Positions 11,985-63,999 are shown, counted from the stretch's first letter. The stretch: 64,000 nt of DNA from an uncultured archaeon (GCA_964421955.1 CAYQYU010000003.1:12377-76376); one strand, 5' to 3'. Program-made: numbers and translations. Notes: generated by a model not told the origin, from the letters alone.

Positions 11985-11985
11985 C

Positions 11986-12036
11986 ATGTCGAAAACCGGA
12001 GATTTTCTTGTCCAGAACAGGGTTGTCCTCGAGTGA
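11986..12036 (+). repeat. Hairpin/mini-ORF connector element (decayed copy; MSKTGDFLVQNRVVLE)
   Basis: GAAAACC-GGA-GATTTTC; ORF starts 1 nt after the upstream stop and its TGA overlaps the GTG at 12033. Confidence 0.55.
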
Positions 12037-42462: not shown

Positions 42463-43243
42463 CTTTGAAGAGTTCGACCCACTGTTTGAAGAGGTCGAAA
42501 CGGTCAACGTTGAACAGGTCGCGCCGTCGGTCATAGACGGTGAGACAGATGTAAAGATCAATGGCGGCTCGATATCGGATTACGACGCAGTCTTCACGGA
42601 TATACCCCAGAAAAACGCCGTCTTCGGACGCGTCCTGCTCGAAATGATAGAGGAGGAGGGTATCCGCACCAACCATCCCTCGACCGCATTCTTCATCATG
42701 TCGAAGAAGAACTATTTGCACCATGTACTCCACCAGAAAGACATCGACGCTTCCGCAACAGTTGTGGTTGCATCGGATAAAGCCGGCCGGAACATCGAAG
42801 ACCATCTCGAGACGCCGCTGATCGCGAGAAAATTCGACCAGCTTGTGGAAGTTGAAAGCCGGCTGATCGAGGACGAGGACACAATAGAGGAATTTGTCGG
42901 CGGCACCGAGTATCCCGACGAGTTCATAGTGTTCCAGGAGCTCGAGGATGGCGACAAGTACAGGTGCCTCTACGCCGGAGGCGAAATCATATCCCTGATG
43001 GACAGCAGCGACAGCTGGCAGCTCCAGGATGAAAAACTGAAGTACTCGTCCCTTTCACAGGAGCAGAAAAAAACCGTGGAGAAAGCCGCAAAGAACATTG
43101 GAACACCCGTAGCCGAGGTAGTCCTGCGCGGCGGGAAAGTCTTCGACGTGAACCCTAACCCCGATCTGGGCCAGTACACTGAAGTATCCGGCAAAAACGC
43201 CTACGAGGCCGTTGCACAGGTCCTGAAAGGTGATATAGGTTGA
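42434..43243 (+). CDS. RimK-like ATP-grasp protein (degenerate)
   Basis: ATP-grasp layout, FQE, DVNPNP; lacks the Gly-rich loop. Confidence 0.75.
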   Translation: MKLLKITRNDFEEFDPLFEEVETVNVEQVAPSVIDGETDVKINGGSISDYDAVFTDIPQKNAVFGRVLLEMIEEEGIRTNHPSTAFFIMSKKNYLHHVLHQKDIDASATVVVASDKAGRNIEDHLETPLIARKFDQLVEVESRLIEDEDTIEEFVGGTEYPDEFIVFQELEDGDKYRCLYAGGEIISLMDSSDSWQLQDEKLKYSSLSQEQKKTVEKAAKNIGTPVAEVVLRGGKVFDVNPNPDLGQYTEVSGKNAYEAVAQVLKGDIG

Positions 43244-43296
43244 AGCTTTCCGCAGGAAAGACTTCTGGCAAAAATCAGCCGGAGGCGGATTTTTAA
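43240..43296 (+). repeat. Hairpin/mini-ORF connector element (TTG start; MKLSAGKTSGKNQPEADF)
   Basis: CTTTCC/GGAAAG hairpin, then AAAAATC..GGAGGC..GATTTTT; overlaps the stop and start of both flanking genes. Confidence 0.7.
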
Positions 43297-44183
43297 TGAA
43301 AATGGCGATAGTGTACGGCGACATATCGACCACCCACCAGCTCATAATTGAAAGAGCGGAAGAGATTTTCGAGTCCGTGCTCGCAGCACCTGTTGACGGC
43401 CTGAAGTTTGCACATATTGACGGCGAGAACAAGGTAATCTACAAGGATACCGATCTGACCGAGTTCGACGCGGTCTACATAAGGACCGGGGACAAGGACA
43501 AGCTGTTCTCCGAGCACCTTACAGAGGTCCTGAATGAAGCCGGGGCAGTCACGCAGGCGGAGAACGACACCTATGCTTACGAGTCCAACAAGTTCTACTC
43601 GATGAAGGTACTGGCGGAAAACGGGGTCAAGGTTCCCGACAGCGTCTACACTCTTTCTCCTGACGCGGCAGTTGAGGCCGCGGAAAAGCTCGGCTACCCG
43701 ATCATCATGAAAACTATCGGCGGGGGAGGCGGCCAGGGAGTAATGCGCGCGACCTCGGAAAACGAGCTGAAACCAGTTATGGATACCATGAAGGCCTTCG
43801 AACAGGACATCTGCCTCCAGGAGTACAAAGAGCACGACGGCACTGACAACCGCATAATAGTCATCGGCGATCAACTGGTCGGCTACCAGCGCTCCAGCGC
43901 AGGGGACGAATGGAGGTCAAACATATCAGGCGGCGGAGACAGGAGAAAGGCAGAGATTACGGAAGAGATCGAAGAGTCCGCAACAAGATCCGCGAAAGCA
44001 CTCGGATTCGATATCTGCGGCTGTGACATAATAGACATCGAGGACGGAGTTTACGTACTGGAGGTTAACGGAGCCTTCGGCCTTAACGAGGGAATAAATG
44101 ATGTAGTCGGCGAGGACATAATTCTGCGTGTCGTCGAGGGAATGCACGAACTGGCAATTCAGCACCAGGAAGAGAAAAAATGA
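43296..44183 (+). CDS. RimK/LysX-family alpha-L-glutamate ligase
   Basis: NKFYS, YPIIMK..GGGGQGV, LQEY, DNRIIV, WRSNISGGG, GCD, LEVN. Confidence 0.92.
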   Translation: MKMAIVYGDISTTHQLIIERAEEIFESVLAAPVDGLKFAHIDGENKVIYKDTDLTEFDAVYIRTGDKDKLFSEHLTEVLNEAGAVTQAENDTYAYESNKFYSMKVLAENGVKVPDSVYTLSPDAAVEAAEKLGYPIIMKTIGGGGGQGVMRATSENELKPVMDTMKAFEQDICLQEYKEHDGTDNRIIVIGDQLVGYQRSSAGDEWRSNISGGGDRRKAEITEEIEESATRSAKALGFDICGCDIIDIEDGVYVLEVNGAFGLNEGINDVVGEDIILRVVEGMHELAIQHQEEKK

Positions 44184-45232
44184 GAACCGGAGTCGAACTG
44201 GAGTACTGGGTTACAGACGGGAACGGAAAGCTACGCTCCGCCGAAAAGATCGCCTCGCGACTGGATTTCGCCGAAAGAGAATTTGTCGAACCGGTACTTG
44301 AAATAAAAACGGAGCCACGAGAAACAGTTTCTGGGTTGAGGAACGAGATCAAGAGGAAGCTCAAGAATGCCATAGAGGAGGCGGAAAGCCTCGATCTGAA
44401 CATTGTCGGTCTGGGGACACCACTTCACTCGGGAGAGATCAAAACAGATGAATCGGCGAGATCAAGACTACAGGAGAAAATTGTGGGTGAACGGCTCAAC
44501 TACGCCAAACACGTTGCGGGCACACACTTCCACTTTGAACAGACCGATCCCGTGAAACAGATCAATCTCCTGACCGCGCTCGACCCCTCGCTCTCGCTTG
44601 TCAGCTCCTCACCCTACTACCGGGGCAAGAGAGTGGCAGACAATGCGAGAAACCAGATATACCGCTACAGGTGCTACGAGAAACTCTCAAAACACGGCCA
44701 GCTCTGGAACTATACCTCGAGCAGGGAAGAATGGGAGAACCGTATCGAGACGAGATTCAACGAGTTCAAGGATTTTGCGCAGGAAAAAGGGATAGATGGA
44801 TCAAAGATAGAAGAGCACTTCCGCCCGGAGGACAGCATATGGATTCCCGTCAGGCTCAGGGAAAAGTTCGGAACAGTTGAATGGAGATCTCCTGATTCCG
44901 CTCTTCCCGGCCGGATAATCGAGTTGCTCGAAAAAATCAGGCATCTAGTTGAAAAAACTGGAGACAGCAGACTTGAGACAGGGAAACCCGGGATAGAACC
45001 GGGAAGAATAGTGGTGCCGGAGTTCACGGAACTTGACCGGCTCTCAAGAAACGCGATATATGATGGGCAGGAAAACGGTGAAGTCCGGAGATATCTCGAG
45101 GAACTAGGGTTTGAAAAACAGGATTCAGTCTCCAGGGAAATTGATGCCGGGGCCAGCATAGATCGTGAGACCGCTAAAAAAATAAGACTGAAATACAGCA
45201 AAAAGCTCAAGCAGGACGTCAAAAAGCTCTAG
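44180..45232 (+). CDS. Glutamate-cysteine ligase family 2 (GCS2) carboxylate-amine ligase
   Basis: TGVELEY, LEIKT, GTHFH, SSPYYRG, W.PVR...GTVEWR.PD. Confidence 0.88.
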   Translation: MRTGVELEYWVTDGNGKLRSAEKIASRLDFAEREFVEPVLEIKTEPRETVSGLRNEIKRKLKNAIEEAESLDLNIVGLGTPLHSGEIKTDESARSRLQEKIVGERLNYAKHVAGTHFHFEQTDPVKQINLLTALDPSLSLVSSSPYYRGKRVADNARNQIYRYRCYEKLSKHGQLWNYTSSREEWENRIETRFNEFKDFAQEKGIDGSKIEEHFRPEDSIWIPVRLREKFGTVEWRSPDSALPGRIIELLEKIRHLVEKTGDSRLETGKPGIEPGRIVVPEFTELDRLSRNAIYDGQENGEVRRYLEELGFEKQDSVSREIDAGASIDRETAKKIRLKYSKKLKQDVKKL

Positions 45233-45236
45233 AAAA

Positions 45237-45614
45237 ATGAAGAAGATAATCCTTGACACCAACTTCCTGGTGGCGCCCTTCCAGCTAAATCTCTCAGTTT
45301 TCGATGAACTCGAAAGACTCTACCCGCACGCGGAGACATACACCCTGGAAGACGTGATCCAGGAGGCGAAGAGCATAGAGTCCGGCAAGTACAAGGCTCT
45401 TGTCCACAAACTGGTTGAAACACAGGACATGGAGGTTCTCGAAACAGAAGGAAGCGGAAGCGTCGACGACCTGCTCGTCGATCTCGCGGACGAGTACGTG
45501 ATCGCCACCAACGACAGGGAGCTGAAGCAGAGGCTGCTCGAAAAAGATGCGGAAGTCGTGATTATCCGGAGCAAGAACCATCTCGAGGCGCTTAACCGGC
45601 AGGAACTTCGATAG
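45237..45614 (+). CDS. PIN-domain protein (Fcf1/Utp24-like)
   Basis: ILDTNFL, VDD, IATNDRELK; usual position before rpoE. Confidence 0.9.
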   Translation: MKKIILDTNFLVAPFQLNLSVFDELERLYPHAETYTLEDVIQEAKSIESGKYKALVHKLVETQDMEVLETEGSGSVDDLLVDLADEYVIATNDRELKQRLLEKDAEVVIIRSKNHLEALNRQELR

Positions 45615-45672
45615 GAAACACCATTTAAAACTTGCGTCGAATCTGCTTACTGTTCTGAGGTAAAAAGAATAT

Positions 45673-46233
45673 ATGTACAAGAGGCTTACAGTCCAGGACT
45701 CGGTAAGAGTACCGCCAGAGCACCTGGGAGATGACCTTGAGGAAAGCGTAAGAGCCGGACTTAGAGAAGAAGTTGAAGGAAGAATTCTATCGGAAGTAGG
45801 AGTCGTGATAGGAGTCGAAGATGTGAACTCTGTCGAGGGCGGAGATATCAGGCCTGAAGACGCAGGGGTCCACTACGAGGTCGAATACCAGGCCATCGTT
45901 TTCGAACCCGAACTGCACGAAGTGGTGCACGGCGAGGTGGTCGACATCACTGGCTTCGGCGCATTCGTTAGAATCGGGCCTTTCGACGGTCTATGCCACG
46001 TATCCCAGGTTATGGACGACTACGTCAACCACGACGAGGAAAACGACATGCTTGTATCTGACGAGAACGACTTCTCACTACAGGTCGGCGATGTACTGAC
46101 CGCAAGGATAATAGCAGTCTCGCTCGAGAACCAGGAGAGCAACAAGATCAACCTCACGATGAGACAGCCAGGTCTCGGAAAGGACGAATGGATCGAGGCG
46201 CACGAGGAAGAACAGGAAGAGGAGGAAGAGTAA
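45673..46233 (+). CDS. rpoE1: RNA polymerase subunit Rpo7 (E')
   Basis: VRVPP, FGAFVRIGPFDGLCHVSQ, TMRQPGLGK. Confidence 0.97.
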   Translation: MYKRLTVQDSVRVPPEHLGDDLEESVRAGLREEVEGRILSEVGVVIGVEDVNSVEGGDIRPEDAGVHYEVEYQAIVFEPELHEVVHGEVVDITGFGAFVRIGPFDGLCHVSQVMDDYVNHDEENDMLVSDENDFSLQVGDVLTARIIAVSLENQESNKINLTMRQPGLGKDEWIEAHEEEQEEEEE

Positions 46234-46319
46234 ATGAATTCTAAAACCCGAAATATAATGGACGCCGGAGCGCTAGCGTAGAGCGTTCCCGCGTGATCGA
46301 TACTTCGCGTGAAAGTTCG

Positions 46320-46508
46320 ATGGCAGAGCGAGCGTGCAGGAACTGTAACAGAATCGTGGAAGACTCGGATGAATGCCCGGTATGCAAGAACAACGACCTT
46401 TCTAACTCCTGGAGCGGACTAGTGGTCATCTACAATCCAGAAGACTCGGATATTGCAGAAAAACTTGGAATACAGACACCGGGTCGCTACGCGATCAGGG
46501 TCAAATAA
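46320..46508 (+). CDS. spt4: Transcription elongation factor Spt4 (RpoE'')
   Basis: ACRNC...CPVC, WSGLV, PGRYAIRV. Confidence 0.95.
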   Translation: MAERACRNCNRIVEDSDECPVCKNNDLSNSWSGLVVIYNPEDSDIAEKLGIQTPGRYAIRVK

Positions 46509-46538
46509 AAGTCTTGCCCGGAGTTGTAAAGAATACAA

Positions 46539-46997
46539 ATGGATGTCAAAATTAGCTCGGTAAAGGAAAACCCGCTGCTAGGAAGACGGGAGGTAGAGGC
46601 AAGTATCGACCACGAAGGAGAGAAAACTCCTAGCGAGGAAGATATTGTGTCAAGAATCGCGGCCGAGAACAATCTCGACGAAGAGAACATCCAGGTTGAC
46701 GGAATCTACACTGGCTTCGGCTCACAGCATTCCAGGGCGGTACTCAAAGTTTTCGAGGACTTTGAATACGACGAGGAGCTTGAAGAGGAAACGATCGAAG
46801 AGGAAGAGACTGGAAGCGGAAAAGCAACCTCAGGAGAATCAAGCGATATCGACTACGAAGAGATCGTTTCCAGCACTATTACCGATGCGAAGGACGCGCT
46901 CGGGGAACTCGATGATCCGGACTACGAGAAGGCGCTTGAAGCCGAGGAAGCAAACAAGGACAGAAAAACCTTCAAAGAATGGCTCGAAGCGCAATAA
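46539..46997 (+). CDS. rps24e: 30S ribosomal protein S24e with an extra C-terminal domain
   Basis: ENPLLGRRE, TPS, TGFG; acidic linker and extra helical domain. Confidence 0.92.
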   Translation: MDVKISSVKENPLLGRREVEASIDHEGEKTPSEEDIVSRIAAENNLDEENIQVDGIYTGFGSQHSRAVLKVFEDFEYDEELEEETIEEEETGSGKATSGESSDIDYEEIVSSTITDAKDALGELDDPDYEKALEAEEANKDRKTFKEWLEAQ

Positions 46998-47034
46998 AGG
47001 TTAAAAATTAGGAGAGACAGAGGTGAATTATTGA

Positions 47035-47235
47035 ATGGCGATTTTAAGGGCTGAAGAAATACGCGAAATGGATACAGGAGAGCTGAAGGAGAAACTCACC
47101 GATCTACAGAAGGAGCTTGTTGAAGAGCGGGGCCAGATCGAAGTTGGAGGCTTCGCGGACAATCCAGGACGAATTGGAGAGATGAAAAAAACTATAGCGA
47201 AGATAAAGACTGTTCTCAACGAACGTTCTGAATAA
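47035..47235 (+). CDS. rpl29: 50S ribosomal protein L29
   Basis: MAILRAEEIREM, NPGRIGEMKKTIAKIKT. Confidence 0.95.
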   Translation: MAILRAEEIREMDTGELKEKLTDLQKELVEERGQIEVGGFADNPGRIGEMKKTIAKIKTVLNERSE

Positions 47236-47291
47236 TGACTGAAATTCAAAGAATTTCTGGCTTGCAAAAGATCACCAGAGGTGATCTTTGA
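47235..47291 (+). repeat. Hairpin/mini-ORF connector element (MTEIQRISGLQKITRGDL)
   Basis: GAAATTC/GAATTTC and AAAGATCACC/GGTGATCTTT; TAATG at the start, TGA-ATG at the end. Confidence 0.75.
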
Positions 47292-47603
47292 ATGGCAGAT
47301 ACATGTCCCAAGTGCGGAATGCCCGAAGACCTTTGCGTCTGTGATTCTATAGCCAAGGGCGAGCAGAAGATCAGCGTCAAACTCGACACCAGGAGCTTCG
47401 GAAAGGAGATGACCGTTGTCGAAGGCCTTGACGACGGAGAGGTCGATCTCGAAGATTTAGCGTCCACGCTCAAGTCAAAACTTGCCTGTGGAGGCACCGC
47501 GAAGAACGGTCAGATCCAGCTACAGGGAGACCACACCCGGCGCATAACAGAGGTTCTCGTGGAAGAAGGCTTCGAGGAATCCCAGATCGAAGTCAACGCA
47601 TAG
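47292..47603 (+). CDS. Translation initiation factor aIF1 (SUI1/YciH)
   Basis: CPKCGMP..LCVC, LKSKLACGGT, LQGDH. Confidence 0.95.
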   Translation: MADTCPKCGMPEDLCVCDSIAKGEQKISVKLDTRSFGKEMTVVEGLDDGEVDLEDLASTLKSKLACGGTAKNGQIQLQGDHTRRITEVLVEEGFEESQIEVNA

Positions 47604-47643
47604 GCACCAAATAGAAAAGAATCAGACATCCAAAAGTTTTCTA

Positions 47644-48696
47644 ATGTCAGAAGATTTCATCCTGCCTCCAAAATTAGAGAAAGGAGACAAAATAGCAGTT
47701 ATTGGAACCTCAAGCGGAGTACAAGAGTTCCCGAAAGTTCTTGAGATAGGAGTGAAGAGACTGGAAAACCGCTTCGGACTAAATCCCGTTGTTTATGATA
47801 CAGCAAGGAAAAATACGGAGTATTTGAACAGTCACCCCGAGGAGAGAGCCGAAGAATTCATGCATGCCTTTGAAGACCCGGAAACAAAGGCAGTTATAGC
47901 CTTGACTGGAGGGGATGAACAGCTCAGAACACTGAAACACCTTGAGCCGGAAAGACTGAAGGATAATCCGACGAGGTTCTACGGCATCAGCGACAACACC
48001 AACATCCATATATACCTCTGGAGTCTCGGAATACAGAGCTTCTACGGCGGTCAAATACTTGACGATTTACTGGCTGAAGGAGAACTCGGAGAGTATAACT
48101 ACAAATATCTAGAGAAAGCCTTCTTTGAGGATAGTCTTGGAGAACTCAAGCCCTCTGAAAAGTTCACTGACGAATTCTTTGATCTGTTCCAAGAAGAAAT
48201 TGAGGATGACAGAAAACGTTTCGACTCCCCAAACTGGGAGTTCTGGAACTTCGATGAAGAGGTTGAAGGCAGAGTTTTCGGAGGATGCTTCGAGATAATT
48301 AACTGGCAGATGGTAGTTCAGAGATACTTACCTGAACCCAAAAAACTTGAAGACACAGTATTGGCGCTGGAAACTTCTGAGGAAGCGCCTTCAGGAACAG
48401 AGGTCAAGAGATGGCTCACATGTCTTGGAGAAAACGGGATTCTCGATAAATTCGCCGCAATAATTGTAGGAAGACCCCCGAGATCACCTCTTCACGGCGA
48501 TAATAGGGGTGAAGAGGAGAAAAGAGAGTATCACAGAAACCAGAAGAAGATTATCAAGCAAGAAGTCGAAAGATACTGCCCAGACACTCCTATAGTCTTC
48601 GACATGGATTTCGGCCATACACACCCTAAAATACCTCTAAAATCAGGGGGAAAAATCAGGATAGAGCCTGAAAACAGAGAGATAACCTCTCTCTGA
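47644..48696 (+). CDS. S66 peptidase (LD-carboxypeptidase/MccF family)
   Basis: PPKLEKGDKIA, GISDNT, LETSEE, DFGHT.P (S-E-H triad). Confidence 0.92.
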   Translation: MSEDFILPPKLEKGDKIAVIGTSSGVQEFPKVLEIGVKRLENRFGLNPVVYDTARKNTEYLNSHPEERAEEFMHAFEDPETKAVIALTGGDEQLRTLKHLEPERLKDNPTRFYGISDNTNIHIYLWSLGIQSFYGGQILDDLLAEGELGEYNYKYLEKAFFEDSLGELKPSEKFTDEFFDLFQEEIEDDRKRFDSPNWEFWNFDEEVEGRVFGGCFEIINWQMVVQRYLPEPKKLEDTVLALETSEEAPSGTEVKRWLTCLGENGILDKFAAIIVGRPPRSPLHGDNRGEEEKREYHRNQKKIIKQEVERYCPDTPIVFDMDFGHTHPKIPLKSGGKIRIEPENREITSL

Positions 48697-48719
48697 AAAC
48701 AAAAGTATGAAGAAACGTC

Positions 48720-49004
48720 ATGCCAATAACACCGGAAAACCTGCCGCGCCACGAACTCATCGGCCTTGAAGCAGAAGTCCTTGAGTCGACAGACGAGAAC
48801 CAGATCGGGATTTCCGGAGAGGTGCTAGACGAGACCCAGAATATGCTCCGGATCGAGGACAGGAAGGTTGAGAAGGAGAACTGTGTCTTCCGCTTCACGC
48901 TGCCCGATGGAGAAAAAGTAAAAATTGACGGCAAGCTGCTTGCGAAGCGGCCAGAGGATCGCGTCGGAATGAAATTGCCCGGCAAATGGGAGTACGTCGA
49001 CTGA
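48720..49004 (+). CDS. rnp1: RNase P protein subunit Rpp29
   Basis: HELIGL, GEVLDET.N, IDG..L..RPEDR. Confidence 0.93.
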   Translation: MPITPENLPRHELIGLEAEVLESTDENQIGISGEVLDETQNMLRIEDRKVEKENCVFRFTLPDGEKVKIDGKLLAKRPEDRVGMKLPGKWEYVD

Positions 49005-49072
49005 GTTTCAGTTTACTACAGGAAAACTGACAGCGATACACTTCCCTTTTAAAGGTTACCTTCACTTGTGAA

Positions 49073-49186
49073 GGATACGAGCCAACTCCGTCTGGAGTCG
49101 GATGATAACCCGATGCTCATTGTCTGAGTATCTGGTTTGACTACGATACTCTGGAGCGGCGCGTAACCTTGAAAACCTACGTGTCC
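49073..49186 (+). ncRNA. Candidate structured non-coding RNA
   Basis: TTTTAAA box about 20-26 nt upstream; terminal stem GGATACG/CGTGTCC; several internal hairpins; no ORF. Confidence 0.4.
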
Positions 49187-49252
49187 GTCTTTAGAGCTTA
49201 TCTGACCAACTGCAGGTGGTTTAAAAAGGTTGGTTTCGAGGATTGATTCACG

Positions 49253-49567
49253 ATGTCACTTGGACTCGATATTGAAACACCCGCAGAAGAATGCGAGGAC
49301 AAGAACTGTCCCTTCCACGGAAACGTCTCTGTGAGAGGCAGTTCTTTCACCGGAGAGGTAGAGTCCACGAAAATGGATAAATCCGCCACAGTCAGGTGGG
49401 AGTACTCGGAAAAGATTCCGAAGTACGAGAGATACGAGCGAAGGAACACCAAGATCTCTGTCCACGTACCTGGGTGTCTCGATGTTGAAGAGGGAGACTC
49501 TGTCCGGGTGGTCGAAACCCGTCCGATCTCGAAGACCAAAAGCGCAGTAATCGTGGAGGTTCAATAG
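49253..49567 (+). CDS. rps17: 30S ribosomal protein S17
   Basis: CEDKNCPFHG, KYERYE, ETRPISKTK. Confidence 0.96.
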   Translation: MSLGLDIETPAEECEDKNCPFHGNVSVRGSSFTGEVESTKMDKSATVRWEYSEKIPKYERYERRNTKISVHVPGCLDVEEGDSVRVVETRPISKTKSAVIVEVQ

Positions 49568-49569
49568 AT

Positions 49570-49968
49570 ATGAAACCCGTCGGCGCCAATATTACGCGAA
49601 CCCTGGACAAGGGCGCATCACTGACGTGTGCCGACAACTCAGGGGCAAAAAAGCTGGAGATCATCGGAGTCAAGGCAAGAAAAGGCCGCCGATCAAGAAG
49701 AGAATCCGCAGGAGTCGGCGATATAGTTACCGTCAAGATTCTGAAGGGAGACCAGGAAGTAAAGCACCAGGTCTTCGACGCAGTAATTGTGAGACAGACA
49801 AAAGAATACCAGCGACCCTCGGGAATGAGGATCGCCTTTGAAGACAACGCGGCAGTTCTAATTGAAGAGAACGGTCTTCCAAAGGGCTCTGTCACGAGAG
49901 GACCTATCGCAAAAGAAGTGGTTCAACGCTTCTCGCCAATTGGAAAGATCGCGTCGCAGGTAGTATGA
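49570..49968 (+). CDS. rpl14: 50S ribosomal protein L14
   Basis: CADNSGAK, FEDNAAV, GPIAKEV. Confidence 0.97.
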   Translation: MKPVGANITRTLDKGASLTCADNSGAKKLEIIGVKARKGRRSRRESAGVGDIVTVKILKGDQEVKHQVFDAVIVRQTKEYQRPSGMRIAFEDNAAVLIEENGLPKGSVTRGPIAKEVVQRFSPIGKIASQVV

Positions 49969-50693
49969 TTATGACACAGAAGACAGACAACTGGAGCAAG
50001 GAATGGAATTCGAGCACGAATCCATCGAAGCAGAGGAAATACAGAGAAAACGCTCCGCTTCACGTAAAAGATAAGCTTGTATCTGCGAACCTCGCCCCGG
50101 AACTCAGGGAAGAGCTCGGGACACGTTCAATTTCAATCAGGGCCGGCGACCGAGTAGAGGTTATGCGCGGCGATGAATCCGGCAGAGAAGGTATCGTCAG
50201 CAATATCGACCGGGAAAACGAGAGAGTGTACGTCAACGGTATCGAGGTCGAGAGAGTCGACGGAACCGAGATGGAGAAGGCTCTGAGGCCGTCAAACCTC
50301 CAGGTAACCGCACTGAATATTGAAGACAACAGGAGACTCGAGAAATACGATATTGAAGACGTCGAGGCGATCGGCGTTGAGGAAGAAGAGATGGAGGAGG
50401 CACTGGAAGAAGAGGAAGAAGGCGAAATGATGCAGCAGATGCAGCAGGGCGAGAGCTCTCTGGAAAAGGATGAAGAGGAGGAAGGAGAACTAGAGGCCGA
50501 AGAGGAAGAGACTGGAGAAGATACCGAAACATCTTCCGCGGACTACGAAGAAATCCTATCCGGGACCATCTCGGACGCAAAAGACGCACTTGAAGACCTG
50601 GAAAATCCGGACTGGGAAGCCGCACTAAAGGCCGAAGAATCCAACAAAAACCGCACAACATTCATCGACTGGCTCGAAAAAAGAGTTGAATAA
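49965..50693 (+). CDS. rpl24: 50S ribosomal protein L24 with an acidic linker and extra C-terminal domain
   Basis: PSKQRK..NAPLH, GDRVEVMRG, RPSNL. Confidence 0.94.
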   Translation: MIMTQKTDNWSKEWNSSTNPSKQRKYRENAPLHVKDKLVSANLAPELREELGTRSISIRAGDRVEVMRGDESGREGIVSNIDRENERVYVNGIEVERVDGTEMEKALRPSNLQVTALNIEDNRRLEKYDIEDVEAIGVEEEEMEEALEEEEEGEMMQQMQQGESSLEKDEEEEGELEAEEEETGEDTETSSADYEEILSGTISDAKDALEDLENPDWEAALKAEESNKNRTTFIDWLEKRVE

Positions 50694-50695
50694 TC

Positions 50696-51358
50696 ATGGC
50701 ATACAACAAGAGACTACCGGCACCGAAGCACTATCCGATCGAGAGGAAGAAGGGCAGCTACGTCTCAACAATTGAAGGATCCCGCAGCAGGGAGGATGCG
50801 ATCCCGGCAGTTCTTCTTCTGAGAGATGTGCTTGGATACGCGGAAAGCGACTCCGAGGCGAAAGAAATAGTTCAGAACAGAGATCTTCTCCGGAACGGAG
50901 AAGAGGTAAGAGATGTTAGACAGGGAATCGGCGTTCTTGACGTGGTGGAGATTCCGAAGGCCGAGGAGGCCTACCGGGTTCTGAGATCCGGGAGAAAGCT
51001 GAAGTTCGTGCCTGTAACCGACGCGGAAAAGATCGTCGCGAAGATCACGGGCAAGCGGTCGGAAGGCGATGAGCACGTTTACAGCCTCCATAACGGCGAG
51101 AACTACCGTACAGATGAAGACTACGGTACAGGAAATACGCTGGTGTTCAACTCCTCGGTGAAGGAAATTGAACTTGAGGAGGGCGCCGAAGTAATCGTAA
51201 TCGAAGGACGGCACGCCGGGGAGATAGCGGAGCTCAAGCAGGTAAACGACCGGGGATTGAATGCGGACACCGGCCTCGTGGAATCAGAGAGCGAGTTCGA
51301 GACCCGACTCGAAAACCTTGTAGCAGTAGAAAACATCGAACTGGGTGAAACCCAATAA
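50696..51358 (+). CDS. rps4e: 30S ribosomal protein S4e
   Basis: KRLPAP, LLLRDVLGYA, GRHAG. Confidence 0.94.
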   Translation: MAYNKRLPAPKHYPIERKKGSYVSTIEGSRSREDAIPAVLLLRDVLGYAESDSEAKEIVQNRDLLRNGEEVRDVRQGIGVLDVVEIPKAEEAYRVLRSGRKLKFVPVTDAEKIVAKITGKRSEGDEHVYSLHNGENYRTDEDYGTGNTLVFNSSVKEIELEEGAEVIVIEGRHAGEIAELKQVNDRGLNADTGLVESESEFETRLENLVAVENIELGETQ

Positions 51359-51876
51359 TGGCAGCAGAACAGGAAATGAAACAGATCCAGATATCGAAAG
51401 TAGTGGTCAATATTGGCGCAGGACAGGTCGGAGACGACGTTGAGAAAGCAGTTGACCTGCTCGAGAAGTTGACTGGAAGAGAAGCGGTGAGAACGGAGTC
51501 TGGTGAGAACTCGAAGACTTTCGGCCTAAGATCAGGATTGAATATTGGCGCAAAGGTAACTCTGAGAGGAGAAGAGGCCCGCGAGTTCCTGGAGAAAGTT
51601 CTACCCGCCGCAGATAATGAAATAGGCGAGAACGCTTTCGACGGCAACGGAAACTTTTCGTTCGGGATAGACGAGTACATCGACGTTCCGGGAGTCGACT
51701 ACGATTCAGATATCGGCATGCGCGGATTCGAGGTCGCAGTCTCGCTGGAACGTCCCGGCTACCGCGTCAAAAAACGGGACCACAAGCCATCTGAAATCGG
51801 CAAAGAACACATAGTGTCAGATGAGGAAGCCCGAGAGTTTGTAGAAGAGGAGCTAGGAGCAGAGGTGGCCGGATAG
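51358..51876 (+). CDS. rpl5: 50S ribosomal protein L5
   Basis: KVVVNIGAG, GAKVTLRG, FDGNGNFSFGI. Confidence 0.97.
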   Translation: MAAEQEMKQIQISKVVVNIGAGQVGDDVEKAVDLLEKLTGREAVRTESGENSKTFGLRSGLNIGAKVTLRGEEAREFLEKVLPAADNEIGENAFDGNGNFSFGIDEYIDVPGVDYDSDIGMRGFEVAVSLERPGYRVKKRDHKPSEIGKEHIVSDEEAREFVEEELGAEVAG

Positions 51877-52101
51877 ATGGGATACGAAGAGATACTCGAC
51901 CAGATCAGACACAAGGAAGGCGACAGGAAAGCCTTCGAGAAACACAATACTCCAAAGGAGAGAGACTACGGAAAATCCAAGAAAGAATGCCGGCGCTGCG
52001 GCAGAACCGGGAGAGGCGTTATCTCGAAGTACGGCCTCAACTACTGCCGACAGTGCTTCAGGGAAGTCGCGGAAGAACTCGGCTTCGAACAGCTCAAGTA
52101 G
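51877..52101 (+). CDS. rps14: 30S ribosomal protein S14 (Zn type)
   Basis: CRRCG...[13 protein letters not shown]. Confidence 0.95.
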
Positions 52102-52109
52102 GTGATAGA

Positions 52110-52169
52110 ATGAGCAAAAATCAAAGATTTTCAGCACTCGCAGAAAACACAGGAGGTGTTTTCGAGTAA
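52110..52169 (+). repeat. Hairpin/mini-ORF connector element (MSKNQRFSALAENTGGVFE)
   Basis: AAAATC/GATTTT and GAAAACAC-AGGAG-GTGTTTTC; own SD AGGTGA; TAATG overlap with rps8. Confidence 0.8.
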
Positions 52170-52558
52170 TGCAGCATGATACATTAAGCGATGCACTATC
52201 CTCGATTAACAATGCCGCTCGCACAGGAAACCAGTACGCAATGATCTCGCCGACAAGCAACCTGATCAAGAACGTGCTGAGGAAACTCCAGGAGCAGGAC
52301 TACATAGGGGTCTTCGAGCTGATCGAGGACGGGAAAGGAGGACAGTTCCGCGTTGAGGTGCAGCCGGAGATCAACGAGTGCAAGCCCGTGAAGCCCAACT
52401 TCTACGTCGGCAACGACGAGTACACGAAGTGGGCAAAGAGATACCTGCCCGCGAGAAACTTTGGAAAACTCATAGTGACAACTCCGGAAGGAGTCATGAC
52501 ACACGAAGAAGCCCGCGAAAGGGGAGTTGGAGGACAGCTCCTTGGCTACGTCTACTAG
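52169..52558 (+). CDS. rps8: 30S ribosomal protein S8
   Basis: DTLSDALSSI, YLPARNFG, GVMTHEEA, GGQLLGYVY. Confidence 0.97.
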   Translation: MQHDTLSDALSSINNAARTGNQYAMISPTSNLIKNVLRKLQEQDYIGVFELIEDGKGGQFRVEVQPEINECKPVKPNFYVGNDEYTKWAKRYLPARNFGKLIVTTPEGVMTHEEARERGVGGQLLGYVY

Positions 52559-52566
52559 GTGATACA

Positions 52567-52629
52567 ATGAGCGAAAATCAAAATCAGAGATTTTCTGGTC
52601 ACGCAAAAACTCACGGAGGTGAGTTTTGA
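52567..52629 (+). repeat. Hairpin/mini-ORF connector element (MSENQNQRFSGHAKTHGGEF)
   Basis: AAAATC/GATTTT and AAAACTCAC-GGAG-GTGAGTTTT; stop abuts the rpl6 GTG. Confidence 0.8.
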
Positions 52630-53169
52630 GTGGATATCAAAACCGAGCTACCAGAAGATGTCGAAGCGGAATACGAGGACGGCGTTCTCAGGGTCGAGAA
52701 CAGCAGCCAGGAAGTGGAGAAACGGCTGGAGCACGCACAGATCCATGTCGAGGTCAGTAGCGGCGAAGTCGTTTTCTCGACCGGGAGCACGAAGAAGAAC
52801 ATCCAGAGCATAGTGAACACTTTCCGGAAACACCTAGAAAACATGCTGAAAGGTCTAGAAAGCGACCACGTTTACAGGATGAAAGGCGTGTACGCACACT
52901 TCCCGATGACAATCAAGCAGGAGGGAGACGAAATCCACCTCGAAAATTTCATGGGCGAACGAGCCGACCGGGTAATAGAAGTCATGGAAGGCGTTGACGT
53001 ATCGATCAACGGCGAAGATCTCGAGTTGAGAGGCCCGGACAAGGAGAAAGTCGCGCAGACCGCCGCAAGGATTGAGCAGGCGTGCAGGAAAGGAAACCGC
53101 GACCCAAGGACATTCCAGGACGGAGTATACATAACAGAGGTCGAAGAAGGAGGTGCCGCAAGTGAGTAA
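52630..53169 (+). CDS. rpl6: 50S ribosomal protein L6
   Basis: [23 protein letters not shown]. Confidence 0.96.
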
Positions 53170-53503
53170 GAAGAATGTCAAAAGAGAAGACAGCCACAAA
53201 AAGAAGTCGTTCCCGGAATCATGGAGAAGACCAAGAGGCACCCACTCAAGGATAAGGCTTGAGAAGAAAGGCGCGCCCGCGAAACCTAAAGCGGGTTACA
53301 GGACTCAAAAAGATGTTAGAGGAAAGCATCCCTCCGGATACGACGAAGTACTGGTCCACAACACAGACGATCTTGAAGAAATCGATCCAGAGACGGAAGC
53401 GGCGAGAATTGCCGGAAAAGTAGGCGCAAGAAAGCGCGAAATCATAGTTGAAAAAGCTGAAGAACTGGACCTCAAGGTACTGAACCCTGGTGATGAACAG
53501 TGA
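53162..53503 (+). CDS. rpl32e: 50S ribosomal protein L32e
   Basis: SWRRPRG.HS, RGKHPSG, VLNP. Confidence 0.95.
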
Positions 53504-53553
53504 ATGCTGAAAGCTTTCACTTCGCAGAAGATCAAGAGGTGATCTTCGAGTGA
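53500..53553 (+). repeat. Hairpin/mini-ORF connector element (GTG start; [17 protein letters not shown])
   Basis: TGAAAGCTTTCA palindrome and GAAGATCA-AGAGG-TGATCTTC; GTGA overlaps at both ends. Confidence 0.75.
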
Positions 53554-53996
53554 GTGACGTAAAAAGCCAGAGAAGAATGGCTGCGGAAATAATGGATGTT
53601 GGCCAGAACCGGGTATGGATCGACCCCGACCAGATCGACCGTGTCGAAGAGGCGATCACACGGCAGGATATAAGGAACCTCATCGAGGGTGGCGCGATCC
53701 AGAAAAAGGACGAAAAAGGTACTTCCAGAGGTCGGGCAAGAGAAAATAGGAGACAGAAATCGAGAGGTCGGAGAAAGGGACAGGGCTCGAGAAAGGGAAA
53801 GAAGACCGCAAGAAAGAGTGGGAAAAAAGAATGGATGGAAAAAATCCGTGCGATCAGGGCCCGATTAAAGGAAATGAAGGAAGAAGATGAAATCACGAAC
53901 AAAGAATACCGGAAACTGTATGACATGGCGAAGGGCGGGTTCTTCAGGGACACAAAACACCTTGAAAACCACGTAGAAGAGAAAATGGAGGCTTAA
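53550..53996 (+). CDS. rpl19e: 50S ribosomal protein L19e
   Basis: QRRMAA, RVWIDP, GSRKGKK.AR, AKGG.F. Confidence 0.96.
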   Translation: MSDVKSQRRMAAEIMDVGQNRVWIDPDQIDRVEEAITRQDIRNLIEGGAIQKKDEKGTSRGRARENRRQKSRGRRKGQGSRKGKKTARKSGKKEWMEKIRAIRARLKEMKEEDEITNKEYRKLYDMAKGGFFRDTKHLENHVEEKMEA

Positions 53997-54005
53997 AATA
54001 ATATT

Positions 54006-54512
54006 ATGGCAGACTCATCAAACTACCAGGTGCCGTTCCGCAGGAGACAGGAACAGAAGACCGACTACGACCAGAGACTGGAACTTCTCAAATCTGGAAG
54101 TCCAAGAGTAGTCGTGAGACTCTCGAACAACCATACCCGAGTACAGATTTCGGAGTACGAACGAGAGGGCGACCAGAACACGGCGCAGACCATCTCGAAG
54201 GAACTGAAGGAATACGGATGGGACGAGCACACTGGCAACCTTCCCGCCGCATACCTGACAGGATTCCTGGCAGGAATGAAGGCGGACGTTGACGAGGCAG
54301 TTCTCGACGTGGGCCTCAGAAGCGTGAAGAAGGGTGGCAGGTTGTTCGCGGCGATACAGGGCCTGAGAGATGCAGAAGTTCACGTTCCCGCGGGAGAAGA
54401 AATGATCCCTGGGGAAGGAAGACTGAGAGGCGAGCATATCGAAGAAATGCACGGAAACGATATTACAGACACTTTCGAAAAAGTCAAGGAAAACATAGAA
54501 GGTGATTACTGA
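54006..54512 (+). CDS. rpl18: 50S ribosomal protein L18
   Basis: FRRR.E.KTDY..RL, NLPAAYLTG. Confidence 0.96.
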   Translation: MADSSNYQVPFRRRQEQKTDYDQRLELLKSGSPRVVVRLSNNHTRVQISEYEREGDQNTAQTISKELKEYGWDEHTGNLPAAYLTGFLAGMKADVDEAVLDVGLRSVKKGGRLFAAIQGLRDAEVHVPAGEEMIPGEGRLRGEHIEEMHGNDITDTFEKVKENIEGDY

Positions 54513-55183
54513 TGGCAGAACAGCAGGAAGAGGAAGAAGTCTGGGTGCCTAAGACAGAGCTCGGTAAGAGCGTTGCCAACGGAGAAGTAACCGATATTAG
54601 AGAGGCGCTCCACTCAGGAGAGAAGATAATGGAGCCGGAGATAGTTGACCACCTAGTCGACCTCAACGAGGAGGTAATCCTGATCGGCGGAACCCCCGGA
54701 AAGGGAGGCGGCAAGCGCCGCACAGTTTCTAAGAGAACTGTAAGAATGCACAAATCCGGCGGCCGGTACAAGACCAACTCCATGGTCGTGCTCGGCGACA
54801 GGAACGGAGTTGTGGGCATAGGGCAGGGAGAGGCAAACGACACCCGTGCCGCAATTGAAGATGCCGCCAGAAGCGCAAAGCTCAACCTTATCGAGGTCAG
54901 GAAAGGCTGCGGATCATGGGAGTGCGCCTGCGGAACCGACCACACGGTGCCTTTCGAGGTTGAAGGAAAGTCCGGCAGTGTAACAGTGGTTCTGAAACCT
55001 GCACCAAAAGGAATCGGGCTTGCGGCGAGCGATGACATGACCAAGCTGCTCGAACTCGCAGGATATGAAGATGTCTGGGTGGAGTCACGCGGACAGACGA
55101 GAACCCGGGAAAACCTGATCAAGGCTGCATTCAAGGCCCTTGAGAAAATCAACGAGATGAAGCACACGGAGGCCGACCACTGA
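54512..55183 (+). CDS. rps5: 30S ribosomal protein S5
   Basis: WVPKTELG, GCGSWEC, PAPKGIGL. Confidence 0.97.
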   Translation: MAEQQEEEEVWVPKTELGKSVANGEVTDIREALHSGEKIMEPEIVDHLVDLNEEVILIGGTPGKGGGKRRTVSKRTVRMHKSGGRYKTNSMVVLGDRNGVVGIGQGEANDTRAAIEDAARSAKLNLIEVRKGCGSWECACGTDHTVPFEVEGKSGSVTVVLKPAPKGIGLAASDDMTKLLELAGYEDVWVESRGQTRTRENLIKAAFKALEKINEMKHTEADH

Positions 55184-55287
55184 TGACTAAGATGAAACTC
55201 CAGAAGAGTTTCTCACAGAAGATTCCACAGAATCTTCGAATCATAGATCTCCTGGATAACCAGAAACTCGAAGGTGAGTTTCGGTGA
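55183..55287 (+). repeat. Three-hairpin mini-ORF connector element (34 codons)
   Basis: GAAACTC/GAGTTTC twice and GAAGATTC/GAATCTTC; TGATG and GTGA overlaps. Confidence 0.75.
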
Positions 55288-55631
55288 TAGCAGCTGTAAG
55301 AGTAAGAGGCAACGTCGACGCACGGGAAAAGGTGTCCCGGACGCTGAACGATCTAAAGCTCAGGAAGAAGAACCAGTGTGTCGTCTTTGAAGAAAACAAG
55401 TCTGTAGAAGGAATGATGAAGCTTGCAAAAGACTACATCGCGTACGGCGAAATAGATGATGATACTGTAGAAAAGCTGGAAGAACGCTCGGGAACAAGTA
55501 TTGAATCCGGCAGCACCGTGAAACTTTCGCCCCCGACAGGCGGATTTAAAGATACAAAGGGAAACGTCGGCCAGGGCGGAAGCCTGGGCAAACGCAGCGA
55601 CATGGACGAACTCATCAACAAAATGGTGTGA
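55284..55631 (+). CDS. rpl30: 50S ribosomal protein L30
   Basis: AAVRVRG, LSPPTGG, LINKM. Confidence 0.94.
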   Translation: MIAAVRVRGNVDAREKVSRTLNDLKLRKKNQCVVFEENKSVEGMMKLAKDYIAYGEIDDDTVEKLEERSGTSIESGSTVKLSPPTGGFKDTKGNVGQGGSLGKRSDMDELINKMV

Positions 55632-60868: not shown

Positions 60869-61027
60869 GCCGGGGTGACAGAGTCTGGCCGAATGTGCCA
60901 GCCTGGAAAACACCTCTTACCCTCCTTCAGCAGGCTTAGAGGTTCAAGAAGCGAACAGATGTGAGCTTCGTACCAGTCAGCTGGTGGCCCATACCGGGCC
61001 TCCTGGGTTCAAATCCCAGCCCCGGCG
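60869..61027 (+). tRNA. tRNA-Ser(GGA) with a 70-nt intron at 37/38 (60909-60978)
   Basis: GCCGGGG/CCCCGGC acceptor stem, CCAGC/GCTGG anticodon stem, long variable arm, TTCAAAT loop, CTGG/CCAG BHB helix. Confidence 0.92.
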
Positions 61028-61045
61028 CTTTCAGCTCCTCTTCGG

Positions 61046-61176
61046 GATTTGAACTGGTTCAAATCGACGAAAATCGAAGATTTTTCTGGAGGTACAGAAA
61101 CTGCTTTCACAGTTTCGAACCCGACCCCGGCGAACTTTACTAAAGTTCGAGCAAATAGACGGTTGCACCGCAACCG
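61046..61176. repeat. Cluster of five short palindromic hairpins after tRNA-Ser
   Basis: GATTTGAAC/GTTCAAATC, GAAAATC/GATTTTTC, GAAACTG/CAGTTTC, CGAACTTTA/TAAAGTTCG, CGGTTGC/GCAACCG. Confidence 0.7.
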
Positions 61177-62971: not shown

Positions 62972-63106
62972 AGCCCCCTGGGGTAGAGGTCAATCCTACC
63001 AGCTTCTGGACACCGGCTTCCGCAAGGATGTCGGTTCGAGAAGTGAGCTAATACGAACTTCGACGGGAAATGGCTGGTGACACAGGTTCGAATCCTGTGG
63101 GGGCTA
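62972..63106 (+). tRNA. tRNA-Gln(CTG) with a 62-nt intron at 37/38 (63010-63071)
   Basis: AGCCCCC/GGGGGCT with A1-U72, CCAGC/GCTGG, GGTTCGAATCC, TTCT/GGAA BHB helix. Confidence 0.93.
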
Positions 63107-63857: not shown

Positions 63858-63999
63858 AGCCCCCTGGTCTAGTGGTCAATGATAGCGGCCTTTGGAACCT
63901 CACGTTCTCGAATTTTTGGTGAGAGAACAGGGACCGAGAAGAGCTCCGCTCTTCGATCGAAGATAGCCGCTGACCGAGGTTCGAATCCTCGGGGGGCTA
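63858..63999 (+). tRNA. tRNA-Gln(TTG) with a 69-nt intron at 37/38 (63896-63964)
   Basis: AGCCCCC/GGGGGCT, GCGGC/GCCGC, GGTTCGAATCC, CTTT/GAAG BHB helix. Confidence 0.93.

Follow-up and report, generated by a model that had tools for sequence, protein, structure and literature searches.

A dispersed double-hairpin element at start codons in nanohaloarchaeal genomes and its coupling geometry with downstream genes

Several neighboring genes in the stretch of DNA analyzed here (64,000 nucleotides of a 0.92-Mb nanohaloarchaeal genome, G000; hereafter the window) are joined by short sequences with two hairpins and an open frame (mini-ORF) that runs up to the next start codon. What these sequences are, and how the genes behind them are still translated, is the question considered here.

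Structure and distribution of the element

The seven stretches named in a preliminary description of the window were all present as written (57, 57, 60, 63, 54, 105 and 51 nt for the copies at 43240, 47235, 52110, 52567, 53500, 55183 and 11986, respectively), and Pfam was used to name the flanking genes of all of them (Table 1). Six had been called clear copies; five of these matched, strongly or clearly, a covariance model (R1) built from 12 copies, whereas that at 43240 did not match, although it has two hairpins and the TTC-TGG-CA signature. The seventh, 11986, was rightly regarded as decayed, with a weak match and folding no better than in its shuffles. The other six were more stable than shuffled sequences (z -1.8 to -4.0).

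Table 1. Copies of the element and related hairpin units in the window
Position	Strand	Feature	Context	Evidence	Mini-ORF and other details
11981..12038	+	Decayed copy	T2SSF-like gene>unknown ORF	R1 E 0.013; z +1.1; Pfam	16-codon bridging frame retained; hairpin 2 gone
43240..43296	+	Divergent two-hairpin copy	Unknown ORF>RimK-like gene	No R1 match at E<=1	18-codon bridging frame, TTG start; TAA overlaps next ATG
47231..47297	+	Two-hairpin element	L29>SUI1	R1 E 4.8e-14; Pfam flanks	18 codons; ATG overlaps L29 stop (TAATG); TGA abuts SUI1 ATG; 9-nt SD match in hairpin 2 loop and 3' arm
52106..52171	+	Element	S14>S8	R1 E 5.9e-14	19 codons; start 8 nt past S14 stop, downstream of old SD; stop overlaps S8 start (TAATG)
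52569..52635	+	Element	S8>L6	R1 E 1.3e-13	20 codons; TGA abuts L6 GTG start; hairpin 1 loop of 9 nt
53492..53555	+	Element	L32e>L19e	R1 E 4.8e-13	17 codons; GTG overlaps L32e stop; TGA overlaps L19e GTG; SD read in other frame
55183..55289	+	Expanded element	S5>L30	R1 E 0.026 for 3' part 55227-55289	34 codons; TGA overlaps L30 GTG; three perfect hairpins and a fourth small stem in fold
61059..61124	+	Non-coding two-hairpin copy	Beside tRNA-Ser(GGA)	R1 E 0.006	No SD, no mini-ORF
63938..63954	+	Single hairpin unit of the element's type	In tRNA-Gln(TTG) intron		Intron 69-72 nt

Each unit is a hairpin with GAAR at the beginning of its stem and YTTC at the end. Single units were seen, but the element usually consists of two inverted units in the form hairpin 1-TGG-short spacer-GCA-hairpin 2-GA, so that hairpin 1, bordered by TC...TGG, corresponds to hairpin 2, bordered by CA...GA, in reverse orientation. 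The compensatory stem changes noticed earlier were borne out in 12 aligned sequences, in which 93.3% of cells were paired and 12 of the 15 pairs showed changes on both sides; none of 500 shuffles reached these values, and slid alignment controls gave only one to three such pairs. In 81 distinct copies from relatives, whose alignment was fitted to R1, 96.4% of cells were paired and 14 of 15 pairs had changed on both sides (shuffles, 0/500). The covariation was strong in both stems.

A search of G000 with R1 gave 40 matches at E<=1, and the family comprises about 20-30 copies in this genome; the 25 best of 36 checked hits were all intergenic. Across the phylum, R1 matches were found in 46 of 70 genomes (E<=1e-4), with copy numbers that differed within genera (for example, 0, 1, 3, 3 and 8) and ranged from 0 to 25 across genomes of one family. 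The scan thus extends the family genome-wide and phylum-wide beyond the copies first noticed. Some members are non-coding, with neither a Shine-Dalgarno (SD) sequence nor a mini-ORF. The view that the element had not been described before held for Rfam and the searched literature: no Rfam 15 family matched it above the gathering threshold, the sole match in the window being a tRNA (63858-63999).

Hairpin units of the same type also occur inside long tRNA introns. A perfect hairpin of this type was present in 9 of the 31 introns found by ARAGORN in G000, the introns of this genome are often 60-72 nt long and hence near the element in size, the genome has an EndA gene, and one copy in a relative lies in a tRNA D-loop region. 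All four observations would fit an RNA-processing element, whose transcript would be cut at or within it by the tRNA splicing endonuclease or another RNase and whose mini-ORF would be irrelevant. However, a relaxed scan for the bulge-helix-bulge (BHB) motif, which recovered only 19 of the 31 tRNA introns, bracketed 32 of 50 mRNA copies at no constant position; the reverse strand gave 29 of 50, and shuffling the flanks gave 14-29 of 50. A spliced sequence would, moreover, need neither an SD nor sense orientation nor contact between mini-ORF stop and next start, yet all three are kept. It is therefore very unlikely that processing explains the junction copies.

Filled and empty sites at orthologous junctions

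Comparison of orthologous junctions revealed a patchy occupancy. Both S14-S8 and S8-L6 were empty in 28 of 28 relatives, S14-S8 being filled in one further named MAG locus (L124), and among 17 relatives from the same family L32e-L19e was filled in 2 and empty in the other 15. Relatives bear elements at other junctions, such as L5-S14, L6-L32e and S4e-L5. Three filled/empty pairs come from a single genus (S15 leader, S2 leader and L4>L23), one or two genomes being filled at each site and the other or others empty. Without the element the sequence is SD-spacer-ATG-codon 2; with it, an identical SD-spacer-ATG is followed by the element with a new terminal ATG and then by codon 2. These pairs place the insertion point exactly at the old start codon, which is now the start of the mini-ORF. 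Thus, the earlier suggestion of insertion at start codons was supported by sites that keep both the old SD and the old ATG in place.

The short end repeats that had been taken as a further mark of insertion fared differently, as they were not longer than in mismatched control pairs. Among 98 copies, no target duplication of fixed length was found: flank repeats were mostly 5-7 nt, equal to the mismatched-pair null, apart from four longer repeats of 9, 10, 11 and 22 nt (by eye, the longest extends to about 27 nt). Duplication at the insertion sites amounts to the 3-nt start codon at most. Near-identical copies were not found either, within-genome identity having a median of 0.51 and a maximum of 0.82, equal to that between genomes, which gives no support for current mobility. 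The transposase profiles searched in G000 (98.8% complete) were PF01797, PF07282 and PF01385. Y1 transposase (PF01797) had no match there, its control being positive in 6 of 14 known genomes; TnpB was not matched, PF07282 and PF01385 both being absent.

Mini-ORFs and stop-start contact at gene junctions

Copies at gene junctions have an open frame of 16-24 codons, once 34. Of 59 junction copies, 47 have a mini-ORF whose stop touches the downstream start (19 ATGA, 18 TAATG and 10 TGA-ATG), whereas deletion of 1 or 2 nt in mid-element left such contact in only 3 of 94 controls; a binomial test of the contact against 0.355 gave p 5e-12. Of the 47 stop-touching copies, 45 have an SD match of at least 5 nt ahead of the downstream start, and 33 have one ahead of the mini-ORF start. 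The SD lies within hairpin 2 in 55 of 59 junction copies, compared with 18 of 36 other copies. Bridging mini-ORFs occurred in 15 of 20 hairpin-bearing co-directional spacers but in only 22 of 341 others (25-140 nt; Fisher p 8e-13) and in 13.5% of shuffled spacers, in agreement with the open, coupled frames of the preliminary description. It should be noted that the openness itself is for the most part intrinsic to the element, which has few stops in any frame; in 83 of 94 shifted reads, no stop occurred until the last 10 nt ahead of the next start. The informative feature is thus the position of the stop and not the open frame. By automatic call, 7 of the 59 junction copies had no bridging frame, several of them bridging in other scans; we attribute most of the seven to mis-set starts.

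It had also been proposed that the peptide is not what is conserved, and this agrees with our results: the SD is not always read in the same frame (two are in use), and relatives read hairpin 1 in each of its three frames. Some peptides are alike, as would be expected if the mini-ORFs encoded functional micro-proteins, but this likeness arises since many copies share one hairpin 1 frame, and conservation lies in nucleotide pairing rather than in the peptide. The probability that these are micro-protein genes is therefore negligible.

The element could alternatively act in DNA, its palindromes binding a dimeric DNA-binding protein or serving as weak bidirectional terminators with no role in RNA or translation. 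As DNA, the unit is indeed an almost perfect palindrome, its stem base (GAAR/YTTC) is conserved and each arm has a short T run. On the other hand, copies between co-directional genes are in sense orientation in 19 of 20 cases, and the remaining one is matched by R1 on both strands, as a symmetrical site would be. An SD is a specific feature of junction copies, contact between stop and start is frame-dependent, and the middles of the stems vary freely while remaining paired; this last behavior is more in keeping with a folded single strand than with a sequence-specific duplex site. A purely DNA-level function thus appears highly improbable.

A closer relation to translation would be expected if junction copies were kept by the host because hairpin 2 hides the SD, so that only ribosomes arriving from upstream translate the gene of the downstream subunit; obligatory 1:1 coupling, or mRNA stabilization, would then result in operons for ribosomal proteins and other complexes. 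The joined genes are often subunits of one complex (TopoVI B>A, A-ATPase C>F, E1 alpha>beta and many ribosomal protein pairs). In hairpin 2, part of the SD is base-paired to the 5' arm, and the 34 nt preceding the start have a median predicted MFE of -8.9 kcal/mol. The S5-L30 copy of a relative (G016, locus L104) has 2 hairpins and 18 codons and differs from that in G000 by 48 nt, the frame having survived this expansion. Furthermore, two orthologous copies at L4>L23 in congeneric genomes, with flanks 84% identical, differ on both arms of hairpin 2, which suggests a host-level constraint on the hairpin that a purely selfish reading would not predict. However, most relatives manage without the element at the same junctions, including all 28 at S14-S8 and S8-L6; copy number varies from none to 25 within a single family; non-coding copies without an SD exist; and some copies are decaying (11986, and an SD mismatch in one orthologous copy). 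Such a host-adaptive device, which is compatible with the explanation that we favor below, seems rather unlikely.

Proposed origin and comparison with known systems

The preliminary description had left the choice between a coupling device and a selfish palindrome inserting at start codons. The empty sites and the geometry of stop-start contact support a combination of both. From the family, structure, insertion sites and coupling geometry established above, we consider it probable that the element is a dispersed, insertion-derived double-hairpin repeat (REPIN/MITE-like) that persists as a translationally coupled mini-cistron, that is, as a natural bicistronic design. The element lands at a start codon, where the old SD and old start codon remain and now open a frame of 16-24 codons across both hairpins. 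It supplies the real gene with a new start codon and with a new SD, which occupies the loop of hairpin 2 and its 3' arm, the mini-ORF stop touching the new start (ATGA, TAATG or TGA-ATG). A ribosome that arrives from the preceding gene, or that binds at the old SD or at the 5' end of a leaderless transcript, would translate the mini-ORF, melt hairpin 2, stop on the next start codon and re-initiate there, so that downstream expression and coupling would outlast an insertion of 50-100 nt. Copies placed where nothing would be translated (tRNA introns and the flanks of tRNA or rRNA genes) have neither SD nor mini-ORF. From sequence we infer both the translation of the mini-ORF and the barring of free ribosome loading by hairpin 2, and we also infer the route by which the element would spread. 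According to PMC6728339, overlapping gene pairs are strictly coupled in Haloferax volcanii, as were 13 of 14 pairs over H. volcanii and E. coli.

Several known systems share part of this design. REP/REPIN sequences (PMC3116915, PMC3733652) are likewise made of short palindromic hairpins, many of them in inverted doublets around a short spacer; they are non-coding, persist vertically and are scattered through intergenic DNA, often within operons. The present element differs in that it has no RAYT/Y1 transposase match (PF01797, G000), is flanked by CA/GA or TC/TGG instead of the 5' tetranucleotide tag GTAG or CGTC named in PMC3733652, has tens of copies and not hundreds, is archaeal, and lies exactly at start codons, in sense orientation and, in principle, translatable with its own SD. 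MITEs, including Rickettsia palindromic elements (RPEs), are also small non-autonomous palindromic insertions that survive in a gene-dense genome by leaving reading frames open; RPEs are located within ORFs, where they extend the host protein by a conserved peptide (PMC10969869). Our element lies instead between ORFs (the 25 best of 36 G000 hits), would form a separate cistron and uses all three frames; unlike MITEs, it shows no general target duplication, and no parent IS was found with the three profiles searched.

With respect to translation, the synthetic bicistronic design (BCD; 10.1101/2023.02.09.527918) has a short leader cistron that holds the SD of the target gene and whose stop overlaps the target start, so that the helicase activity of the ribosome opens local structure. 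The element has this type of geometry in its sequence, that is, a short ORF with the downstream SD (45/47) and a stop on the start (47/59). Whereas BCDs are engineered single parts, it forms a family that is natural, repeated and derived from insertions, and its SD hairpin is built in. Some mobile inserts are neutralized at translation. Among them, mitochondrial 'byps' and double-hairpin elements are small hairpin insertions that are retained in mRNA and with which the ribosome copes. The T4 gene 60 bypass element (10.1101/2022.08.31.505936) is also a small hairpin insertion that stays in the mRNA and is handled by the ribosome. These inserts are hopped over inside coding sequence, whereas our element would be translated through at cistron boundaries. 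Termination-reinitiation pairs share ATGA/TGATG overlaps and an SD inside the upstream frame (PMC6728339, PMC12548453); both cistrons of such pairs are ordinary genes, whereas the element interposes a filler of 16-24 codons, which would give two successive hand-overs. Finally, archaeal tRNA introns (PMC4090602, 10.64898/2026.10.13.758758) are BHB-bounded and removed, whereas the mRNA copies keep their translation signals and, in the relaxed scan that recovered 19 of 31 tRNA introns, gave no consistent BHB bracket; the introns of G000 share the hairpin type and are often 60-72 nt long with two hairpins.

A wider reading, which we put forward tentatively as a possibility, is that this is a new archaeal mobile element that targets start codons with a portable module for ribosome hand-over, and that may also be a vehicle for the gain or enlargement of tRNA introns in nanohaloarchaea. 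If so, the module would consist of a start codon, a stop-free double hairpin, an SD and a new start codon, and the element could colonize ribosomal protein operons and leaderless genes without cost. Since the hairpin unit is shared with unusually long tRNA introns, the family, or whatever makes it, may carry intron gain or enlargement, which would bear on how archaeal tRNA introns arrive.

Structure and distribution of the repeat family

The genome to which the window belongs (G000; 0.92 Mb in 27 contigs, 98.8% complete, the window being C3:12377-76376) carries an approximately 60-nt double-hairpin repeat at start codons, and the seven stretches listed in the preliminary description were found exactly as written there. 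The nearest named relatives of this genome are records of Candidatus Nanohaloarchaea and Nanohalobium, which agrees with the nanohaloarchaeal placement in the preliminary description. Their flanking genes were identified by Pfam at the implied places (L29, SUI1, S14, S8, L6, L32e, L19e, S5 and L30), several of them in the archaeal spc ribosomal-protein operon. Fold energy of the claimed hairpins was better than that of shuffled sequences in six of the seven stretches, the exception being the one already called decayed. The stretch at 43240 had the same build as the family but no match at E<=1 to R1, a covariance model made from 12 copies of the element. The absence of a described archaeal counterpart was borne out by both Rfam, which reported only tRNA at the gathering threshold and otherwise one chance-level match (E 0.12), and the literature searched on nanohaloarchaea, in which no description of such elements was found. 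Box C/D or H/ACA RNA, suggested by the ATGA/TGA ends, was rejected, the motifs being unsuitable and Rfam giving no match. In a separate observation, L24 and a 152-aa ORF in the window both have long acidic C-terminal tails, which end similarly.

A profile from four copies revealed additional copies on other contigs of G000. The usual order is hairpin 1, TGG, a short spacer, GCA, hairpin 2, GA and the next start codon, and both stems begin with GAAR and end with YTTC, with free variation between. Hairpin 1 and its flanks equal hairpin 2 and its flanks in reverse orientation; the element thus consists of one unit present twice, as an inverted doublet, and this unit is also found singly. Perfect hairpins of this unit type numbered 138 in the genome, 83 of them intergenic and 2 at gene edges according to gene calls that cover 91% of the genome, and were 4-7 times rarer after block shuffling.

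The compensatory stem changes noted earlier were confirmed by covariation. In the alignment of 12 copies (8 from G000 and 4 from relatives), 12 of 15 pairs were altered on both sides and 93.3% of cells were paired, figures that are favoured because the structure was derived from the same sequences; none of 500 shuffles matched this, and slid controls gave 1-3 two-sided pairs. Among 81 distinct copies in relatives' loci, aligned by fitting to R1, 96.4% of cells were paired and 14 of 15 pairs had changed on both sides.

R1 had 40 matches in G000 (E<=1) and matched 23 of 31 related genomes (E<=0.1). At E<=1e-4 with stricter filters, 46 of the 70 genomes of the phylum had matches: 38/49 in the same family (leaving out G000) and 2/10, 5/8, 0/1 and 0/1 in other families. 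Copy number varied inside genera (for example, 0, 1, 3, 3, 8 and 15, 10, 25, 2). Copies also occurred in a locus of a Candidatus Nanohalobium MAG. Beyond the phylum, the only two loci scanned, each of 6 kb, had no match, and we thus make no claim of restriction to the phylum.

Positions of the stretches and features discussed (window coordinates unless a contig of G000 is named)
Feature	Position	Remark
First-noted stretches (starts)	43240, 47235, 52110, 52567, 53500, 55183	
First-noted stretch (start)	11986	called decayed
spc operon	49.2-57.4 kb	
L24	49965-50693	acidic tail
152-aa ORF	46539-46997	acidic tail
Element beside parvulin-like gene	C15:19287-19407	
Long-intron tRNA genes	60869-61028, 62972-63106, 63858-63999	ARAGORN
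Second recurrent hairpin	C19:10818, C20:4897, C6:61845, C15:11854, C1:102342, C17:2198, C2:63	near tRNA genes
tRNA-Lys(CTT) gene, hairpin unit and second 3' half	C1:103517-103832	

Filled and empty sites

Orthologous gene junctions and leaders with the element (filled) and without it (empty) were compared. At S14-S8 and S8-L6, spacers measured -4 to 23 nt in all 28 relatives with the locus and 67 and 71 nt in G000; at L32e-L19e, 15 of 17 same-family relatives were empty and 2 filled. Conversely, L5-S14, L6-L32e and S4e-L5 contained elements in relatives and none in G000. In addition, one named MAG locus (L124) has the S14-S8 copy. Of RNA runs, none was listed as containing the stretch. In the contigs assembled from four DNA runs, the S14-S8 site occurred only in the form of a relative, in which 52099 is joined to 52169 with 8 other letters, and no presence/absence of the element within the same strain was revealed. 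G016, with 85% identity in S8 the closest relative by this measure, shared with G000 only one of the five spc sites compared, of which four are filled in G000 and one is filled in G016. At this shared site, S5-L30, the G016 copy comprises two hairpins and a frame of 18 codons and the G000 copy three perfect hairpins and 34 codons, a difference of 48 nt that keeps the frame. In other families of the order, L32e-L19e contains an extra ORF of ~55 aa with two Cys pairs (loci L017, L018, L020, L021 and L023-L029); no such ORF was seen in the family to which the window belongs.

The claim of insertion at start codons was upheld by three clean filled/empty pairs within one genus (G005, G048 and G049), namely the S15 leader, the S2 leader and L4>L23 (Pfam). 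The empty form runs from an SD or leader through ATG to codon 2; the filled form has the identical leader and ATG, followed by ~55-58 nt ending in a new start and then codon 2. The element was therefore inserted at the start codon, and the ancestral start became that of the mini-ORF, the short frame running through both hairpins. Empty forms of the S2 leader have a TATA-like box ~25 nt ahead of the ATG, and we read their mRNA as probably leaderless. A fourth, more complex site is the proteasome alpha leader (congeneric loci L083, L146 and L147), where one genome is filled, one has an unrelated 21-nt leader and one has a short leader. The short form resembles the two SD regions of the element fused together, a scar that excision by recombination between them may have left.

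The best-supported reading is a palindromic repeat that derives from insertion and whose landing sites are start codons. Searches of G000 for transposase partners (PF01797, PF07282 and PF01385) had no match, that is, neither a Y1 transposase nor TnpB was found. The short end repeats previously taken as a sign of insertion did not hold up: flank repeats equalled the null and no general target duplication was found, with the exceptions of three repeats of 9-11 nt and one perfect duplication. The latter is on contig C15, where the final nine codons of a parvulin-like gene, together with their stop, form a perfect direct repeat around an element (22 nt within the scan window, ~27 nt by eye). The 5' arm of the element's hairpin 1 is inside the repeat, which makes the 3' arm an inverted duplicate of native sequence. 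Such copying of hairpin 1 from the local flank was true of two copies whose flank repeats are long (G000 C15:19358 and locus L109); at L32e-L19e the same origin proved wrong, since a second copy in that genome has the same hairpin. A repetition of the gene's opening codons in the mini-ORF was also considered and dropped, the signal being weak (mean 6-nt identity 2.21 vs 1.95; 77 of 2000 permutations). Copy comparison revealed no recent bursts, likeness within genomes being no higher than between genomes, and some non-orthologous copies from different genera were 80-84% identical. In the orthologous L4>L23 copies, hairpin 2 differs on both arms and the flanks are 84% identical, which gives a hint that the hairpin is under selection where it stands.

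Placement and proposed translation across gene junctions

After removal of four reverse-strand duplicates, 36 of the 40 R1 matches in G000 were used for analysis of placement. The best 25 were all intergenic; among the 11 weakest, 5 were inside genes. At co-directional junctions, 19 of 20 copies were in sense orientation and the remaining one matched both strands. These junctions join ribosomal proteins or subunits of one complex (Pfam: L18e>L13, TopoVI B>A, A-ATPase C>F, L37ae>RpoP, LSm>L37e, S28e>L24e, L1>L10, E1 alpha>beta, S13>S4 and others).

Open frames were more frequent than in shuffled spacers. Among co-directional spacers of 25-140 nt in G000, a frame bridging the upstream stop and the downstream start was present in 15 of 20 hairpin-bearing spacers, vs 13.5% in shuffles of the same spacers and 22 of 341 other spacers, several of which are imperfect copies (Fisher p 8e-13). 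We then surveyed 95 distinct R1 hits (76 from relatives, 19 from G000), 59 of which lay between two long frames at the chosen thresholds. In 47 of these 59, the mini-ORF stop overlapped or abutted the next start, as had been described (19 ATGA/GTGA, 18 TAATG and 10 TGA-ATG); the expected fraction was 0.355 (p 5e-12, which is too strong because related copies are not independent). Five others stopped within 10 nt of the start and seven had no bridging frame in the automatic call, most of them probably owing to a mis-chosen start, since several were bridged in other analyses. The mini-ORFs were 16-24 codons long (median 18), apart from the expanded S5-L30 copy of G000 (34).

When 1 or 2 nt were deleted mid-element, stop-start contact was observed in only 3 of 94 shifted frames, and 83 of 94 had no stop more than 10 nt ahead of the next start. 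Thus, the open frame follows to a large extent from the sequence itself, and the position of the in-frame stop is the feature kept. Hairpin 1 was read in all three frames; the peptide is therefore not conserved, as originally stated. SD matches of at least 5 nt preceded the downstream start in 45 of 47 copies and the mini-ORF start in 33 of 47. The SD was in hairpin 2 in 55 of 59 junction copies and 18 of 36 copies outside junctions, the latter including several 5'-leader copies with a mini-ORF and seven within 250 nt of a tRNA gene.

Termination-reinitiation at overlapping gene pairs has been demonstrated experimentally in a haloarchaeon (PMC6728339). In the account proposed here, ribosomes would enter at the old start, pass through the stop-free double hairpin with the SD in hairpin 2 and be handed on where the stop lies on the new start, and the repeat may persist because these features jointly pass ribosomes. 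That junction copies are host-adaptive, useful as obligatory couplers rather than merely tolerated, seems to us unlikely. The closest known systems to such a start-codon insertion are REPINs, the Rickettsia palindromic elements that lie in frame, and the engineered bicistronic design. Apart from the inverted-doublet palindromes typical of REPINs, the family lacked the defining features tested of the first two; it has the sequence-level features of the third.

Hairpins at tRNA genes and significance

With introns required, ARAGORN called 31 tRNA genes in G000 with anticodon-loop introns of 42-138 nt, and 12 were called without introns, some calls overlapping or possibly being false. A perfect hairpin of the unit type was present in 9 of the 31 introns and imperfect ones in further introns. 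A recurrent build, in the examples read, runs from hairpin A through ACC-N-A and a GAAR...YTTC hairpin to GA and the splice helix (its 3' strand); hairpin A is conserved and the two-hairpin build is common to several introns. One tRNA-Ile intron had an antisense R1 match, and Rfam reported a tRNA in the window with a 72-nt insertion containing the hairpin unit. A BHB scan did not support the idea that the mRNA copies are spliced; it does not discriminate and is weak, because it recovered only 19 of the 31 tRNA introns. A second recurrent hairpin (TGAT-S-AAACTT, 4-nt loop, AAGTTT-S) occurs near several tRNA genes, mostly directly 5'. On contig C1, after a tRNA-Lys(CTT) gene, a hairpin unit precedes a second copy of the gene's 3' half, possibly a tRNA half of split or duplicated origin. 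The link between tRNA introns and the hairpin is a concrete lead on the origin of archaeal tRNA introns.

The family would be the first repeat family, in the literature searched, to survive at cistron boundaries as translated, coupled filler cistrons; if this is true, the engineered bicistronic design would have a natural counterpart in it. The ~60 natural variants of an SD-in-hairpin coupler are offered for tests of archaeal termination-reinitiation. For annotation, operon 'spacers' of 50-100 nt here should not be taken as plain non-coding DNA. Finally, the family would show how a 0.9-Mb genome that is 91% coding can tolerate tens of insertions, even within its spc ribosomal operon.
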